Under the pieces are notes generated by a model. The model saw only the letters and a list, made by a program, of their open reading frames with translations. It did not search any database and was not told the origin of the DNA. Below, one piece after another: positions 30,689 through 42,158 of a stretch of 64,000 nucleotides of DNA. Origin of the DNA: Opitutia bacterium. Its GTDB lineage: Bacteria > Verrucomicrobiota > Verrucomicrobiia > Opitutales > T3Sed10-336. Where the stretch lies: NCBI GenBank assembly GCA_050506795.1, contig JBJHCF010000007.1, positions 58,837 to 122,836 of the forward strand, read 5' to 3'. Every line of letters starts with the position of its first letter. Position 1 is the stretch's first letter. The translations under genes and the position numbers were made by a program.

Positions 30689-30760
30689 GGCCTTTTCATT
30701 CGACGGCTGTCAGCCGCATGAAAAGGCATTTGAAATCGAAAATTTGAGATTTGAAATAAA
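30689..30760 (+). repeat. Dispersed hairpin+heptamer repeat, copy 1
   Basis: GGCCTTTTCAT-18nt-ATGAAAAGGC followed by ATTTGAA ATCGAAA ATTTGAG ATTTGAA; aligns without gaps to 45341-45409 and rc 58235-58306. Confidence 0.85.
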
Positions 30761-30812
30761 CGAATGAACTTGAACGAGATATGCGCTAGAGCATTGCTGG
30801 ACTGTGAAGGTT

Positions 30813-30900
30813 CTCACACGGAGCTTACGGAGCCGGGTCCAGTAGAAATCTCCGTGTCTCTCGCCGGCCTGAGCTCGTCGAGGGCATGCCTCCGTGTGAG
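30813..30900. repeat. Nonamer-unit inverted repeat with an interrupted right arm
   Basis: CTCACACGGAG CTTACGGAG ... CTCCGTG-[~30 nt]-CTCCGTGTGAG; the outer 11 bp are perfectly inverted. Confidence 0.7.
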
Positions 30901-31009
30901 CCCAATTTTCGCTGTATTTTTTGTTTCTTCAAACGATGAACCTCCTTAACCGTGCCATTCAGGTTACCCAAAACTTGCCCTTTCGTCCGGCTCGTATAAA
31001 AAGGCCCCG

Positions 31010-36104: not shown

Positions 36105-37105
36105 AACCCACCCCCAAACTTATTGATACCTCCACGGCGCTCCTGGTTTTATTTCTCCTGGTCGCACCAGCCCTTCCGGTCGTCTCCCGGTATCAAGAGC
36201 CGGCGACCGTAACCCTCGAAAACGGCCGGCAGTACACCGGAATCCTCGCCGGTCTGGCCGACGAGCGTCTGGCCTTGATTGTGCCGGACGGAGCAGGTGA
36301 AGCCGAATACCTCCTGCCAATCGAGCAGATCACGAAGGTGGATCTGCCCGATGAAGACCTCGCAACAAACGCACTGCTTCTGTACCAGGAAAACAACTAC
36401 GAGCAGGCAATTCCTCTGCTGGAAACAATCTATCGGAATCGCCTTCCCTACCTTGCACTTTTGGCCCCGAACCAGGAGACACCACTCGTCGCCCTGGTAA
36501 AACTATATTCGGCGACGGGAGCCCGACTCGACGCGGTCATCACCGCGCGTCGACTCAGTCGCGATATACGGAATCCGGCCCATCGCGAAGAACTGGCGGC
36601 CATCAAACTGACCGGATACCTTGACCTCGACTTGATTGAACGCGCCGTCTCCGACGGACGCGCCTGGTGTGCCCGGCAGGACCGGCATCCCGATTCCGCG
36701 CTGGGATGGTATGTGCTGGCTGAAGTCGCTTTGCGGGAGGAACGGCTCGAAGATGCCCTGTGGATTGCCCTGCAACCGATTGCGTTCTCATCGGCTTCCC
36801 CCATGTCGTACCTGGAAGCGGCCTATGCGGCAGCCCTCCGCGCCTACCAAAAGACGGGCGAAACGGACCTGGGAATCGAGCTCTACCGGGAAATGAGGGA
36901 CCGCGATTTGCCTCTTTCCGAACTCAGCCCCTCCGCCGGCGAAACGATCGCCTACTTCGCCGAGCTTTGGGAGGCGGAGAGACAGGCGTCCCCGAATGAG
37001 GAGGAAACCGGCCCGCTCCTTGATCCTCGTCCGCCGCGAGCGGACCTCAATCTGCCTCTGCGCGAAGTCCGCCGACTACTCCTCGCCTTGCCGGAGTTCG
37101 AATAA
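36101..37105 (+). CDS. Secreted hypothetical protein with TPR-like helices
   Basis: Hydrophobic N-terminus, small beta domain (VTLENGRQYTG), helical repeats; ATGA-coupled to the TPR gene. Confidence 0.65.
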   Translation: MKPTPKLIDTSTALLVLFLLVAPALPVVSRYQEPATVTLENGRQYTGILAGLADERLALIVPDGAGEAEYLLPIEQITKVDLPDEDLATNALLLYQENNYEQAIPLLETIYRNRLPYLALLAPNQETPLVALVKLYSATGARLDAVITARRLSRDIRNPAHREELAAIKLTGYLDLDLIERAVSDGRAWCARQDRHPDSALGWYVLAEVALREERLEDALWIALQPIAFSSASPMSYLEAAYAAALRAYQKTGETDLGIELYREMRDRDLPLSELSPSAGETIAYFAELWEAERQASPNEEETGPLLDPRPPRADLNLPLREVRRLLLALPEFE

Positions 37106-37146
37106 AACCCATCCAACAATCGACCCTTGCATCAACGCCAACCGCT

Positions 37147-37917
37147 ATGAAACCTACCTCGATTCGATTCCCCTTCCTGGCAACCCTCTTCCTCTCGGCA
37201 AGTTTACCGCTGCAGGCGGCCGACGCCGCGGCGACCGGCGGGCAGCTCAGTCTATGGAGCCTGCTGCAACAGGGAGGCTGGGCCATGTATCCTCTGGCGG
37301 CCTGTTCGATTGCCATGTTTTTCCTGATCTTTCACTGCGTCCGGGAAACCGCGCCGGCAAGGTTCATACCACCCAATGCCCTTCCCCACCTGGCATCGCT
37401 GCTGGAGTCGCGTCGCATCGAGGAAACCATGGCCCACCTGGATGCCACACCCGGCGCACTGTCCCGAGCGCTCCGTCCGGCATTGCAGAAAGCACGTCCC
37501 GACCTCGCCGATGCCGGCAAGGAACAGGTGGAATTCGCGCTGGCCGAAGCGCTCGAGCACGAGGAGAACGGAATCTCGCAATGGATCACCTACCTGAACG
37601 TGGTCGCCAGTGTCGCCCCCATGATCGGCCTGCTCGGCACGGTCAGCGGAATGATAGGGGCCTTTCAAACCATATCGCTTGGCGGCATGGGGCGTCCGGA
37701 GTTGCTCGCCGGCGACATCGGCCAGGCCCTGGTCACCACCGCCACCGGACTGACCATCGGTATTCCCGCGATGATCGCCTATTTCGTCCTGCGCAACCGC
37801 CTGGAAAACCGCATGCTCGAAACCACCCGCGGCGCCACCGAACTCATCGACACCCTGGCCGCCGGATACGCCTTCGAAGGAGAAGCCGAGGCACAGGAAG
37901 AAATCGAGCGGATTTGA
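37147..37917 (+). CDS. MotA/TolQ/ExbB proton-channel family protein
   Basis: QGGWAMYPL, APMIGLLGTVSGMIGAF, IGQALVTTATGL.IGIPA. Confidence 0.93.
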   Translation: MKPTSIRFPFLATLFLSASLPLQAADAAATGGQLSLWSLLQQGGWAMYPLAACSIAMFFLIFHCVRETAPARFIPPNALPHLASLLESRRIEETMAHLDATPGALSRALRPALQKARPDLADAGKEQVEFALAEALEHEENGISQWITYLNVVASVAPMIGLLGTVSGMIGAFQTISLGGMGRPELLAGDIGQALVTTATGLTIGIPAMIAYFVLRNRLENRMLETTRGATELIDTLAAGYAFEGEAEAQEEIERI

Positions 37918-37935
37918 TCCGAACGCCTAAAAAGA

Positions 37936-38343
37936 ATGAATCACCACGAAGAGCACAAAGTGCACGAAGAAATACAATTCGAAGCGCTTTCACACCGTGT
38001 GATCGGTTGCGCAATTGAAGTGCATCGCGTTCTTGGACCTGGCCTGCTGGAATCGTCCTACCAAAGATGCCTGAGTCATGAATTGGAACTAAAAGGGATC
38101 GAGCATCTGTGCGAAACACCACTTCCCATCGAATACAAAGAAACTTCCCTGGAATGCGGTTATCGCGTTGATTTATTGGTTGCCAATGCTCTGATCATCG
38201 AGCTGAAAAGCGTAAGGAAAATCGACCCCATTCACGAAGCCCAGATTCTGACCTACATGAAGTTATCCGGCGTTCGGACAGGACTTATTTTGAACTTCAA
38301 TGTATCGAAACTCAAAGAGGGAATAAAACGCTACGTCCTCTAA
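37936..38343 (+). CDS. GxxExxY protein (PD-(D/E)XK nuclease-like)
   Basis: LGPGLLESSYQ (GxxExxY), YRVDLLV..IIELKSV, HEAQILTY, GLILNF. Confidence 0.93.
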   Translation: MNHHEEHKVHEEIQFEALSHRVIGCAIEVHRVLGPGLLESSYQRCLSHELELKGIEHLCETPLPIEYKETSLECGYRVDLLVANALIIELKSVRKIDPIHEAQILTYMKLSGVRTGLILNFNVSKLKEGIKRYVL

Positions 38344-38381
38344 TCCCCTACTCTTCGTGCCCTTCGCGCTCTTCGTGGTGA
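37941..38381. mobile_element. Putative inverted-repeat-bounded GxxExxY element
   Basis: Arms 37941-37970 and 38352-38381 are 27/30 inverted-identical and made of 9-nt CACGAAGAG-like units. Confidence 0.55.
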
Positions 38382-38405
38382 AAACGAATCTGGGACCAGC
38401 CGGTC

Positions 38406-41400
38406 CTATCCGCGTTCGCCGGCCAGCTCAGGGACGCCGGTGTGTTCCGGCTCGGTTCGCTGCCGTTCGGAATTGAAGCGCATGGACACCACTTTGGACA
38501 CACCCTTCTCCTCCATAGTCACTCCGAAAATCGCCTGAGCTTCCGAGATGGTGCGTTTGTTGTGGGTGATGATCAGGAACTGCGATTCCTGAGTGAACTC
38601 TCTGAGCATTCCGGTGAAACGACCGATATTCGCCTCGTCCAGGGGAGCGTCCAACTCGTCCAGCACACAGAACGGACTGGGCTTGACCATGTAAATGGCA
38701 AAAAGAAGGGCCACCGCGGTCATGGTTTTTTGTCCGCCGGAAAGCAGCACGATCCCCTTGAGCTTGGTGCCCGGGGGCTGAGCGATAATATCGATTCCGG
38801 CCTCCAGGGGGTCCTCCGACTCCAGGAGTTCGAGGTTGGCCTTGCCGCCGCCAAAAAGACTTTGGAAGGTGTAGGTGAAGTTCTTGGTGATCTGCTCGAA
38901 TATCTCTTTAAACTGCGCCGTCGAGCGCTCGTTGATATCGTCGATCGCGCGCAGCAACTCGTCGCGGGATTCCACCAGGTCGGAGTGTTGCGTATTGAGG
39001 AATTCATGACGTTCCTTCAGTTCCACGTACTCCTCGATCGCGACCAGGTTTACCGGTCCCATGGAGTGAATGCGCGACCGCAGGGTGTCGATTTCCGCTT
39101 TCACCGCCGACCAGTCCGTATCGTCCATGGCGGCGCGGTCTTCATCGGTCATGTCGGGGCGCGGCCCCGCGGTCTTGCGTTTGCGCTTGGGCGTGTCCTC
39201 GTCGTCGTCCAGATCCAGCGGGTGCGGTCCGGCGGGCTCGTCTTCCGCCCGCCAAAGGCATTCCCGCCAATCGACTTCGGGCAATGAAAGCTCGTATTCG
39301 CGCTCGATTTCCTCCAGCAGATAATCGCGCCGCGATTTTCGCTCCGCCTGCCTGACCTGAAGTGCATTGAGCTCGCTGCGACGCTTGTCCAGTTCGGTCC
39401 GACGGTCATGCACCGCTTTTTCCGCGGCGGTAATTTCCTCCTCCACGGACGAGTACTGCCGACGAACCTTCTCGACGTTTTCCTGGGCGGACTTGAGTTC
39501 GGTCTCCGCCGCCGCGGCGTTCTCCTTCTGTTGAATGTTTTCCTTGCGAAGGGATTCAATCTGCTCACCCAGACGCTCGATTTCCTGGCGCCGGTGTTCG
39601 ATTCCGCGTTGAAGCTCCGCGGTTTTGGTTTCCATTTCGCTGAGCCCGCGATCCAGCATTTCCAGACGCTGTTTTTTCTGCGCCAGATCGAACCGGGCCT
39701 CGGAAAGCTTCTCCCGCTCCTGCTCCAATTCTGTCCGAGTAGACCGGATGCGCTCCTCGCAGGTCGCGATCGCCGCCTTGTGGTCATCGAGCGCCTTTTC
39801 GGCTTCCGCCAGTTTCCGCCGCAGCGTGTCGGATTCCTCATGGGCGGCGGCCCGGCGGGCCTGAAGCTTTTCCCGGTCCGACACCAGGCGCGCGGATCGG
39901 CTCAAGGTTTCCTCCCGCGCCTTTTCCGCGCTGCGGAGCTCGGTTTCCAGGGAAGTCCGTTTGCCGGAGGCATCTCTCACGTTCACGTGAGCGGTTTCGA
40001 CACCCTTTTCCGCCTCCTCCAGGCTCGTTTGCAACGCTTCGGCTTCCTCCTTGAGTGCCGTAAGACGCTTCTGCTCGGCGGCGATCTCCTTTTTCAGATC
40101 ACGAATTTCCGACTCCCGCTGCAGGATCGAATTTCCCTTGCCTTTGTGATACCCGCCAAACACCAGACCGCGCCGATCGATCAACTCGCCTTTGGCCGTG
40201 ACAACATGCTGGAAGTCGAAATCGGGCCGAGTTTTCCAGAATTCGAAAAAGGCAGCCGCATCCGCGGCAAAATAACTGCGAGCCAGCAGATCGCCCAGGG
40301 GATGCCCGGCATCGTCACCGTCGCCCTCGACGGTGAACAACTCGGCCGCGGGTTTAATGGTCGGAGGCAGATCGGACGACCGATCGGAACGCCCGTTTCC
40401 CTCCGGGAAAAAAGAAAGGCAAGCCTTGCCCATCTTGCGTTCGTCGAGAACATGCAGCACCCGGAGAGCCACCTCCGGGTCCTTGACCGCCACGGAATCG
40501 ATAGCCGATCCGAGGAGGGTCTCCAGGGCCGGAGCACAGTCCGGTTTAGCCTGGATATTGCGTGTGAGCGGGAAATATTCCGTACCCTCGGGCAGGACTT
40601 CATCCAGTTTCCCCTGCAGGAGCGCTTTGGCGCCCTCGCTAAACCCTTCCAGCTTTTCCTGCAACTGCTGCAGAACCCGCAAACGGGCGTTATTCTGCGC
40701 CACCGCCCGGTCGGACACCTGGATTTCCGCCTGTTTGGCGCGATAAGCATCACGGCCGCCGACCACCCTGGCGCGAGCCTCCTCCAGGGCCTGTTGAGCG
40801 GCCGCCTGGTCTTCCTCGGCCGCTTTCATGGCATCCGCAAACCGGGCGAGACTTTCGTCGGCGGCGACCTTTTCCTTCTCCAGCGACGCGATCTCCTCAT
40901 CCAACCCGGCGGCGCGAACCTCATCCGATTTGAGACTGAGATCGAACTCCGTATTCCTGGAACGCAGGCGGACCGCCTCGTTCTCCGCCTTCAGCAGATT
41001 CTGTTTCTCGGCGCCCAGGGCCTTTTCCTCCTCGGCGAGGCGCGCCTGCAACGCCCGCACCTCCTGATCGCGGGTTTGAAAGAAGCGATCGGAGTTCGCC
41101 ACCACCTCGTGCTGCTCCTTTTTGGTTTGGGCACTGCCGACCACCTCCTCGCTGGTTGCGGAGAGCTCCTTCTCCATCCGCTCGATTTCTTTGGTGGCGT
41201 CGGCCAGACGGCCGGAATAATCCTCGCCCCGCGCTTCGGCGAGGCGGGCGGCGTTTTCCGCCTGTTCCTTGCGGGAACGCAGGTCGAAAACCGCCTGCTG
41301 CGCTTCCTGCAATCGCGAGTTAAGGGCGCTCCGCTCCGCTTTTCTTTCCTCAATGGCCGATTCACGGCTCTCCAGATCGGCGGTTTCGCGCGCGACATCG

Positions 41401-42158
41401 GTCTGCAAAGCGGTCAGCTTTTCCTCAAGGCCGCCGAGTTCCTCCTCAAGAATACTGTACTGGTGGCCGTTATAGGCCAGATCCAGCTTTTCCAGGCGGT
41501 GCCGAATCTTCTTGTAGCGAAGGGCCTTGCTGGCCTGACGGCGCAAAGTGTTGATCTGGCGACGAACCTCGTCGAGCACATCGGTCAACCTCGCCAGGTT
41601 GCCTTCCACCAGTTTCAGCTTGTTCAGCGCCTCGCGCCGCTGGCTTTTGTATTTGGTGATTCCGGCGGCCTCCTCGAAGATCGCCCGCCGTTCCACCGGG
41701 TTGGAGGAAAGAATCTGGTCGATCTGGCCCTGGGCCATAATGGAATAGGACGAGCGACCAATTCCGGTATCCATAAAAATGCGCTGGATATCCTTGAGGC
41801 GGCAGGCCTTGCCGTTGAGGAAATAATCGCTCTGTCCGTCGCGGGAAACCCGGCGGGTGATTTCCACCTCGTGAAATCCGTCGCCCAGGAGCGGTTCACA
41901 TTCGGTGAAAACCAATGAGACTTCGCAGAGTTGAACCGGTTTGCGCTGATCGGTACCCTCGAAAATAACATCCTGCATCTTGCCGCCGCGCAACGCCTTG
42001 GCGCTTTGCTCTCCGAGAACCCAGCGAATCGCATCCGCGATATTGCTCTTGCCGCAGCCGTTGGGGCCGACGATGGCGGTAACTCCGGTGTCGAAGGTCA
42101 GCTTGGTCGGATCGGCGAAGCTTTTGAAGCCGTTTACTCTGAGTTCGCGAAGGTACAT
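38406..42158 (-). CDS. smc: Chromosome segregation protein SMC
   Basis: GFKSF, GPNGCGKSN, QGQID, EEAAGI, hinge GG, LSGGQK, LDELDAPLD, ITHN. Confidence 0.97.
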   Translation of the reverse strand: MYLRELRVNGFKSFADPTKLTFDTGVTAIVGPNGCGKSNIADAIRWVLGEQSAKALRGGKMQDVIFEGTDQRKPVQLCEVSLVFTECEPLLGDGFHEVEITRRVSRDGQSDYFLNGKACRLKDIQRIFMDTGIGRSSYSIMAQGQIDQILSSNPVERRAIFEEAAGITKYKSQRREALNKLKLVEGNLARLTDVLDEVRRQINTLRRQASKALRYKKIRHRLEKLDLAYNGHQYSILEEELGGLEEKLTALQTDVARETADLESRESAIEERKAERSALNSRLQEAQQAVFDLRSRKEQAENAARLAEARGEDYSGRLADATKEIERMEKELSATSEEVVGSAQTKKEQHEVVANSDRFFQTRDQEVRALQARLAEEEKALGAEKQNLLKAENEAVRLRSRNTEFDLSLKSDEVRAAGLDEEIASLEKEKVAADESLARFADAMKAAEEDQAAAQQALEEARARVVGGRDAYRAKQAEIQVSDRAVAQNNARLRVLQQLQEKLEGFSEGAKALLQGKLDEVLPEGTEYFPLTRNIQAKPDCAPALETLLGSAIDSVAVKDPEVALRVLHVLDERKMGKACLSFFPEGNGRSDRSSDLPPTIKPAAELFTVEGDGDDAGHPLGDLLARSYFAADAAAFFEFWKTRPDFDFQHVVTAKGELIDRRGLVFGGYHKGKGNSILQRESEIRDLKKEIAAEQKRLTALKEEAEALQTSLEEAEKGVETAHVNVRDASGKRTSLETELRSAEKAREETLSRSARLVSDREKLQARRAAAHEESDTLRRKLAEAEKALDDHKAAIATCEERIRSTRTELEQEREKLSEARFDLAQKKQRLEMLDRGLSEMETKTAELQRGIEHRRQEIERLGEQIESLRKENIQQKENAAAAETELKSAQENVEKVRRQYSSVEEEITAAEKAVHDRRTELDKRRSELNALQVRQAERKSRRDYLLEEIEREYELSLPEVDWRECLWRAEDEPAGPHPLDLDDDEDTPKRKRKTAGPRPDMTDEDRAAMDDTDWSAVKAEIDTLRSRIHSMGPVNLVAIEEYVELKERHEFLNTQHSDLVESRDELLRAIDDINERSTAQFKEIFEQITKNFTYTFQSLFGGGKANLELLESEDPLEAGIDIIAQPPGTKLKGIVLLSGGQKTMTAVALLFAIYMVKPSPFCVLDELDAPLDEANIGRFTGMLREFTQESQFLIITHNKRTISEAQAIFGVTMEEKGVSKVVSMRFNSERQRTEPEHTGVPELAGERG

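Follow-up and report, generated by a model that had tools for sequence, protein, structure and literature searches.

Can a single small nuclease gene, together with the repeats that enclose it, make up a mobile element? The question is raised by a locus of an Opitutia bacterium lying in a 64-kb window (the whole stretch of DNA that was analysed, to which all coordinates given without a contig name refer) on contig C7 of a 4.94-Mb, 82-contig genome, here designated G000. Between exbB and smc, a gene of the GxxExxY family (PDDEXK_3), a very large family without assigned function, stands inside an inverted repeat whose arms are built of short tandem units, and the sequence-only reading that preceded this work had taken the whole for a candidate minimal mobile element. 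According to the reading put forward here, whose chances are judged to be even, the unit is a selfish, hairpin-bounded cassette whose nuclease would act on its own hairpin ends, made of CACRRAG units, and hairpins lacking the gene would be its dependants; mobility and substrate are the parts of this reading that we infer.

The cassette, its protein and its site in relatives

Both arms of the inverted repeat were reproduced by the repeat search, the left one at 37941..37970 and the right one at 38352..38381 (both given on the + strand), each 30 nt long, 90% complementary to each other (27/30), separated by a spacer of 381 nt and delimiting an arm-to-arm unit of 441 bp (37941-38381). Each arm consists of three units of 9 nt, CACGAAGAG, CACAAAGTG and CACGAAGA, which in the left arm follow a terminal TCAC. 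A degenerate pattern of the arm had only two matches in the window, the two arms themselves, and 0 of 100 dinucleotide-preserving shuffles contained a match. The open reading frame (ORF; 37936..38343, + strand, 135 aa) opens with MNHHEEHKVHEE, so that the annotated ORF contains the left arm, which overlaps its codons 3-12, and the right arm begins 8 nt past the TAA stop. The arm coordinates, the 9-nt period and the placement of the arms relative to the gene thus agreed with the sequence-only reading, as did the surroundings: outside the element, a MotA/ExbB-family gene (37147..37917, + strand) ends 18 nt ahead of the cassette ATG, and the convergent smc gene (38406..42158, - strand) ends 24 nt past the right arm and 62 nt past the ORF. 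The 300-nt windows that centre on the cassette (38000-38449) had a GC content of 0.47-0.51, and 37850-38149 one of 0.50, whereas flanking windows reached 0.55-0.64 and the genome as a whole 0.589; the AT-richness noticed earlier was therefore real, and the cassette is compositionally foreign to its surroundings. Rfam gave no match at E ≤ 1 at the locus and none in 20 related loci, which places the cassette outside rRNA genes. No sigma-70-like site was found by a promoter scan of 37000-38800, and a terminator scan gave two terminator-like matches, the number expected from shuffles.

Assignment of the ORF to the GxxExxY family held with two profiles, both above their curated cut-offs: PF13366 (PDDEXK_3; E 2.2e-41, 141.3 bits against a cut-off of 22, residues 17-132), which was the sole Pfam match, and TIGR04256 (GxxExxY; E 9e-43, 145.3 bits against 35, residues 18-134), the family domain spanning residues 17-134 in all. 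At 50% identity, 20,706 clusters match the protein with E ≤ 1e-3, and 6,677 do so with E ≤ 1e-10. Residues G20, E23, Y26, D63, K75, Y91, N104, F105 and R116 were invariant in an alignment of 28 GxxExxY sequences including the window protein, and E73 (at least 90%), H84 and Q87 were nearly invariant. E...D...ExK is the usual catalytic set of metal-dependent PD-(D/E)XK nucleases, and the putative catalytic residues are conserved here in that arrangement. The predicted model was confident (predicted local distance difference test 96.4) and has a PD-(D/E)XK fold; judged from the catalytic residues and this predicted fold, the enzyme looks active. Its fold matches were Cas4 SSO0001 (Z 8.3), BpuSI (Z 8.1), 3ijm (Z 7.9) and Hjc (Z 6.7, template-modelling score ~0.45), Foldseek with the same model returned no PDB match at E ≤ 1e-3, and a profile search of PDB sequences gave weak best matches, those to T7 endonuclease I (E 0.23; region D...ExK) being a lead and not a result. 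PADLOC yielded a weak Cas4 match only (E 0.005), and PHROGs gave no match to the cassette protein.

Roughly a fifth of the best relatives of the protein (~30 of 150) are 160-295 aa long and contain the GxxExxY domain twice, one copy after the other; such natural fusions hint that a pair of domains is the working unit.

The same site was compared in relatives, as the sequence-only reading had advised for the detection of empty alleles. Genome G001, of the same genus, has exbB (89% identical) and smc (95%) arranged as in G000. Between them (locus L002, contig C20, 1070-1282) both arms are kept and the gene is reduced to its last 36 codons, in frame with MNHHEEHK. The in-frame deletion removed 279 nt; one of its ends lies in the CACAAAG of the left arm, the other in a CACGAAG of the coding sequence that is formed by the conserved codons H-E-A of the HxAQ motif. 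What remains is a hairpin with a loop of ~105 nt, and internal deletion is thus shown to be a source of gene-less hairpins. In other genera the neighbours of exbB are different (e.g. an IMP-dehydrogenase-like ORF follows it), and the exbB-smc synteny is lost.

Metagenomic contigs added two further views of the site. Those of run X3, from a different study, span two junctions, from the exbB end into the left arm and from the 3' portion of the gene into the right arm. A 960-nt contig of run X2, with ~85% identity, passes from exbB (to 37923) to smc (from 38473), 95 unaligned letters replacing 549 nt; the difference of 454 nt is close to the 441-nt unit, and the 95 letters may hold a solo hairpin. 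Intact (G000), decayed (G001) and, apart from the 95 unaligned letters, apparently cassette-free (X2) states were therefore found at one site. Vertical conservation at this locus, which had been named beforehand as evidence against mobility, was found in part: two congeneric species share the cassette at this position, but its presence is patchy, as seen from the X2 contig. Read depth over the two arms was 43 and 53 against 14.6 in the run that is the likely source metagenome, which indicates that the arms are repeated in that metagenome. Joints 37969->38353/38354, seen in runs X1 and X2, were considered as excision products and rejected; their sides are only 28-31 nt long and they are read as gene-less hairpins with similar arms at other places of those metagenomes.

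Recurrence of the architecture and co-variation of the arms

To what extent the architecture is a property of the family was determined in two samples. The order sample comprised 61 genomes, 31 of them with the GxxExxY family, and one locus was taken from each of 30 genomes. With the requirement of an ungapped enclosing repeat with a score of at least 14, within 120 nt upstream and 140 nt downstream, an inverted repeat enclosed the gene in 15/30 loci, against 0/114 shifted windows and 0/30 loci with the right flank reversed; most of the remaining loci showed by eye degenerate or gapped similar arms, or whole hairpins on both sides. The cross-phylum sample comprised 79 loci, retrieved with an alignment of eight sequences and biased to the clade with the LGPGLLE and AQLLTYLK motifs. 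Their hosts belong to at least 17 phyla, including Planctomycetota, Pseudomonadota, Acidobacteriota, Thermodesulfobacteriota, Chloroflexota, Bacteroidota, Verrucomicrobiota and Omnitrophota, and one of them is a metagenome-assembled genome (MAG) of Methanothrix. By gapped local alignment of the left flank with the reverse complement of the right flank (score at least 14), a tight enclosing inverted repeat was present in 56/79 loci, against 4/288 shifted windows and 3/79 reversed flanks. The enrichment of periodic inverted repeats around GxxExxY genes that the sequence-only reading had predicted was accordingly obtained in both samples, and the gene with its two arms is a discrete unit that recurs family-wide, not a local oddity. 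Publications describing GxxExxY genes with repeat-built hairpins were not found in the literature searched, with subscription journals and supplements outside the search.

At least one array of units was present within 450 nt of the gene in 75/79 loci. The layout was arm-gene-arm in 40 loci and hairpin-gene-hairpin in 10, other partial patterns were seen in 25, and 4 had no array within that distance. Arms consist of 2-4 tandem CAC-RR-AG units, with a core spacing of 9 nt (87 cases) or 8 nt (48 cases). Polarity was constant, the purine-rich CACRRAG strand being on the 5' arm and the outer end being TTnAC|CAC. The two bases before the first core, which were unconstrained by the search, were A and C in all 32 period-8 arms; in arms of period 9, A was found in 44/46 and C in 40/46. 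Conservation of these unconstrained flanking bases indicates that the arms carry conserved sequence as well as structure. The upstream neighbour was co-directional in 48 of the 63 loci having one.

The arms of one locus also resemble each other more closely than the motif alone would produce. Within loci, the left arm and its reverse-complemented right partner were 0.88 identical, compared with 0.80 when arms were paired across loci of the same unit type and period, and 0/2000 type-preserving shuffles reached 0.88; complementarity within a locus exceeds what the shared motif gives, and the proposed co-variation of the arms was borne out.

A protein tree was built from 76 of the 79 proteins, leaving out L074 (split match) and L055 and L063 (stops). 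The tree is short (118 columns) and most of its forks are weak, and thus only counts of label changes were used. The dominant unit type (GA, AG, GG, AA or mixed; 67 labelled rows) changed 22 times on the tree, against 33.5 +/- 2.0 times in 1000 shuffles, none of which was as low as 22. Host phylum changed 37 times among 72 rows, and many phyla are intermixed both in a clade of mainly CACGAAG units and in one of mainly CACAGAG units. Unit type thus goes with the protein phylogeny, not with the host phylum, which indicates that gene and arm type travel together across hosts. The best named relative of the cassette, from an Opitutales MAG (L051), has 78% protein identity and near-identical arms, and its context consists of DUF4160/DUF2442 genes and an IS3-like transposase ORF, not of exbB or smc. 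On these sequence comparisons, the cassette class appears to be both conserved and horizontally transferred.

Paralogs, gene-less hairpins and other enclosed genes

Genome G000 contains six PF13366 genes, mutually 28-72% identical, and all six stand beside repeat-built hairpins. Five have flanking inverted repeats of 9-nt CAC-containing units, with a sequence particular to each, and the sixth (contig C56) lies between two hairpins of CAGCGAAG-like units. A genome-wide inverted-repeat scan found many further hairpins with arms of short tandem 7-9-nt units. When strict CAC[AG][AG]AG units spaced 1-3 nt were counted, 135 arrays of at least two units were obtained, 104 of them with at least three, compared with 2-4 in block-shuffled genomes. 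Hairpins arise from at least 40 forward-reverse pairs of arrays; most enclose no gene, and their loops measure ~18 nt or 100-120 nt. The arrays are extragenic: only 19/104 are inside ORFs of at least 200 aa, though such ORFs span 89% of the genome.

Two gene-less hairpins of the window had been pointed out as possible non-autonomous partners of the cassette. Both are real, intergenic and members of CAC-unit hairpin families. One (30813-30823/30890-30900; strand not assigned) has nested CACGGAG units and belongs to a family of ~23 copies in G000; the other (32006-32034/32051-32079; likewise without strand) has CGCAGAG/CACAGAG units in 29-nt arms, 76% complementary, around a 16-nt loop, with similar copies on other contigs. 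Near-identical copies occur in G000 only among such gene-less families. No remnants of GxxExxY were recognised by eye in the loops (~100-120 nt) of the second gene-less family. The short CACGGAG hairpin (18-nt loop; window 30700-30960 and ~22 other places in G000) centres a larger repeated element of ~300 nt, which has a terminal inverted repeat of its own (GAATGGCACTCGGTTAAGG...) and for that reason looks like a miniature inverted-repeat transposable element (MITE) or a small RNA that carries the hairpin.

Presence of the arrays was then compared with presence of the gene, using three strict CAC[AG][AG]AG units in a row as the pattern; all genomes of the phylum sample were at least 90% complete. 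Gene and arrays occurred together in 17 of the 61 genomes of the order, with the gene only in 14, arrays only in 4 and neither in 26; the corresponding figures for the 151 genomes of the phylum were 51, 24, 3 and 73, all these counts being uncorrected for shared ancestry or genome size, which weakens what they say for a dependence of the arrays on the gene. The gene was thus present in 51/54 array-bearing genomes of the phylum, the family itself being found in 75/151, and the triple-unit arrays are almost confined to gene-carrying genomes. Among the 21/61 array-bearing genomes of the order, the four with arrays only comprise two with single microsatellites and two with single matches, and the three arrays-only genomes of the phylum hold 1-3 matches each. 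The same pattern read backward, as a control, gave 0 in nearly all genomes, and several large genomes without the gene are also without arrays. Arrays far outnumber genes in some genomes (295 against 2 in G111, 126 against 6 in G076, 104 against 6 in G000), and gene-only genomes often have variant units, such as CGCAAAG, CACGGAT, ACAGGAT and GGAACTCA. A relation of the gene-less hairpins to the cassette, as suggested earlier, is accordingly upheld by their unit class and by the way their presence in a genome tracks that of the gene.

Long-spacer hairpins of G000 enclose genes of three kinds, namely GxxExxY, the four-helix-bundle family PF05635 (23S rRNA intervening-sequence protein, Avd-like) and one DUF2442 gene. 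Six Pfam-confirmed PF05635 genes (C2:156806-157186, C12:78118-78474, C21:17143-17586, C25:57007-57402, C27:20473-20865 and C1:72320-72733) are enclosed by or adjoin inverted repeats of tandem 7-nt units, which are mutually unrelated (e.g. GGAGTCA, GGGGCGA, GTTAAAAG, CCGCCAT, GATAGGC). Across the order, PF05635 genes outside rRNA were inside tandem-unit arms in 20/30 loci against 0/110 shifted windows, the arms having no common motif. The DUF2442 gene (C61:7614-8477) has a 34-nt inverted repeat of AAGAACC-like heptamers and lies 1.5 kb from a GxxExxY cassette. The GxxExxY and PF05635 families occurred together in 26 of the 61 genomes of the order, each one alone in 5 and 5, and neither in 25, uncorrected for genome size or ancestry.

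Proposed mechanism, rival explanations and known systems

If the cassette is a selfish element, it would move as one piece, from genome to genome and from site to site. The arms would serve as cis sites for the encoded metal-dependent nuclease, recognised through the CACRRAG motif and the paired or hairpin form, and the nuclease would nick or cut at the arms, most plausibly in single-stranded or extruded DNA, after which host repair or replication may complete the copying. Gene-less hairpins would be non-autonomous derivatives, formed for example by an internal deletion like that of G001, and maintained or spread in trans. The conserved cis-element wrapped around the gene is the first concrete lead to the substrate of GxxExxY proteins, the predicted substrate being a CACRRAG-repeat hairpin with a fixed terminus. 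An enzyme acting on such hairpins would represent a new enzyme class for a REP-like (repetitive extragenic palindromic) repeat system that shapes genomes, and it might find practical use as a compact nuclease specific for both sequence and structure.

Several results weigh against this proposal. To our knowledge, a lone hydrolytic PD-(D/E)XK nuclease cannot join DNA and is not a self-sufficient transposase, which leaves the copying step unexplained. The predicted fold appears to match a generic restriction-endonuclease-like core, with junction resolvases not singled out. No target-site duplication emerged in 38 loci (1 match at k=3 against 0.85 expected, none at k of 4 or more), and vertical retention of the cassette predates the split of G000 and G001. 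The paralogs of G000, at 28-72% identity, give no sign of recent copying of gene-bearing units; they are old, each has its own arm sequence, and no near-identical gene-bearing copies accompany them. The most abundant short-hairpin family lies inside a larger repeat, so its spread may have another cause. Strict triple arrays are absent from 24/75 gene-bearing genomes of the phylum sample, and since PF05635 and DUF2442 genes are enclosed in a similar manner, the hairpin design does not need this particular nuclease.

That parallel also leads to the strongest rival, a role of the arms in RNA, which we consider rather unlikely. In a transcript reading through from exbB, the arms would pair as a stem of ~30 bp that closes off the ORF and is cut by RNase III, the role of the nuclease being unrelated; cutting would separate, stabilise or silence the cassette mRNA (silencing is conceivable since the left arm extends over the start-codon region), and the hairpin would be packaging for a promoter-less gene behind host genes. 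The design is strikingly similar to that of an intervening sequence (IVS) in the 23S rRNA of one bacterium, which is excised by RNase III at the stem; its 5' stem region holds the heptamer GACAGAT three times in tandem, directly ahead of an ORF for S23p, a four-helix-bundle protein of PF05635, and an old hypothesis recorded there held that the ORF served mobility (PMC4990558). The tandem-unit arms of the PF05635 genes of the order (20/30 against 0/110), the co-occurrence of the GxxExxY and PF05635 families in genomes, the missing sigma-70-like promoter in 37000-38800 and the co-directional upstream neighbours (48/63) point the same way. Co-directional neighbours at 76%, however, are close to the usual bacterial background, which counts against a role in RNA. 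An RNA stem over the gene start had been offered by the sequence-only reading as well, and it fared unevenly: the minimum-energy RNA fold of 37918-38400 does include the long-range arm stem, but the whole-region fold is not unusually stable (z = -1.25, 13/100 shuffles folding as well), and arm mismatches show no preference for G:U pairs on the sense strand (56 against 51 antisense, p = 0.70; 198 mismatches in 56 loci). A unit motif and a terminal TTnAC|CAC conserved across phyla are more than a plain RNase III stem would need, the gene-less hairpins are numerous and tied to the presence of the gene, and 0/20 loci tested are in an rRNA gene.

Binding without mobility is a less probable account: the GxxExxY protein or a host factor would bind the tandem CACRRAG units as operators for expression of the gene, and the gene-less hairpins would belong to the same regulon as additional regulatory sites or terminators. 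This account would be in keeping with short tandem units that have a conserved core and a period of about one helical turn, with a left arm at the start codon and with arrays that are intergenic and co-occur with the gene. It is at odds with the retention of the full catalytic set of a nuclease, with a cassette that is compositionally foreign and patchy at the exbB-smc site, with a gene tree that conflicts with host phyla and whose arm type follows the gene, and with arm complementarity beyond the motif, which two independent operators would not need. The selfish-cassette, RNA and operator explanations are not mutually exclusive. Very improbable, finally, is an ordinary small vertical gene whose repeat is a by-product, unlinked to the protein, of slippage or of a bidirectional terminator between convergent genes. 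The shared site in two species of the genus, the missing target duplication and the age of the paralogs would fit it; the architecture and motif in 56/79 loci of many phyla and gene contexts, against 4/288 controls, and the arrays that track the gene across 151 genomes do not.

Compared with known systems, the cassette can be described, by analogy, as similar in anatomy to REP sequences with their REP-associated tyrosine transposases (RAYT) and similar in design to an IVS, with a different enzyme. The properties of REP/RAYT systems, as reportedly set out by Nunvar in 2010 and by Bertels and Rainey in 2011, agree with those of the cassette in the following: one or few enzyme genes between inverted copies of the repeat, numerous extragenic hairpins without a gene, co-occurrence of repeats and gene in genomes, paralogs with their own repeat variants, and no target duplication. 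The cassette differs in having a PD-(D/E)XK hydrolase (sole Pfam match PF13366) instead of an HUH/Y1 tyrosine transposase, in arms of tandem 8-9-nt units where REP is a single palindrome, and in the single hairpin that encloses the gene in most loci. The analogy with RAYT/REPIN drawn by the sequence-only reading is thus fair as far as the anatomy goes. Three Y1 transposase genes of G000 (IS200-like, RAYT-like; C36:49869-50467, C27:32884-33462 and C16:89273-90102) are flanked by classical GC-rich REP-type hairpins, unrelated to CACRRAG, and ordinary REP/RAYT systems therefore coexist with the CACRRAG hairpins in this genome.

With the 23S rRNA IVS the cassette has in common a small ORF that a long stem of inverted repeats closes off, short repeats in tandem beside the start codon, in the 5' stem region, and a sporadic distribution with ORF decay and long-suspected mobility (PMC4990558). 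It is unlike the IVS in lying between exbB and smc and not in an rRNA gene, in its ORF of another family and in arm units with a conserved motif and terminus. Elements of the IS200/IS605 type and MITE-like elements are likewise short, have sub-terminal hairpins, make no target duplication and give rise to non-autonomous derivatives by internal deletion, of which the G001 copy is the example here; the cassette differs in lacking an HUH or DDE transposase, in its ends, a perfect-style inverted repeat of tandem units, and in the absence of near-identical gene-bearing copies within a genome. From classical insertion sequences and transposons it is set apart by the absence of target-site duplication in the 38 loci and by gene-bearing copies of 28-72% identity. 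Free-standing homing endonuclease genes, some of them PD-(D/E)XK, are also small selfish nuclease genes, with trees discordant with those of their hosts and with intact, decayed and absent states at one site, as in G000, G001 and, apparently, the X2 contig with its 95 unaligned letters. We know of no homing genes that are bounded by repeat-built inverted arms or accompanied by families of gene-less hairpins. T7 endonuclease I and archaeal Hjc have a similar size and the same E..D..ExK catalytic spacing, with a weak profile match (E 0.23) and a fold match (Z 6.7, template-modelling score ~0.45), respectively, which are no better than the matches of the cassette protein to Cas4 or restriction enzymes (Z 8.3 and 8.1).

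A wider generalisation is offered tentatively, as something less probable than the selfish cassette itself: GxxExxY proteins may be the PD-(D/E)XK counterpart of REP/RAYT, that is, hairpin- and motif-specific DNA endonucleases that maintain and spread CACRRAG hairpins and their own cassette across most bacterial phyla, and the four-helix-bundle (S23p/Avd-like) cassettes, including the 23S rRNA IVS, may belong to the same broader class. If true, this would give a common origin to the long-unexplained ORF-bearing IVS elements, and the four-helix-bundle parallel opens a 30-year-old question on ORF-bearing 23S rRNA IVS to comparative genomics and biochemistry.

Genes of the GxxExxY family, of the four-helix-bundle family or of both were also found clustered within a few kb in other genomes (G066:C3:3485592-3489994, G048:C1:1828560-1836704, G042:C1:18141-30572 and G031:C27:22100-29299), as if cassettes accumulate in islands.

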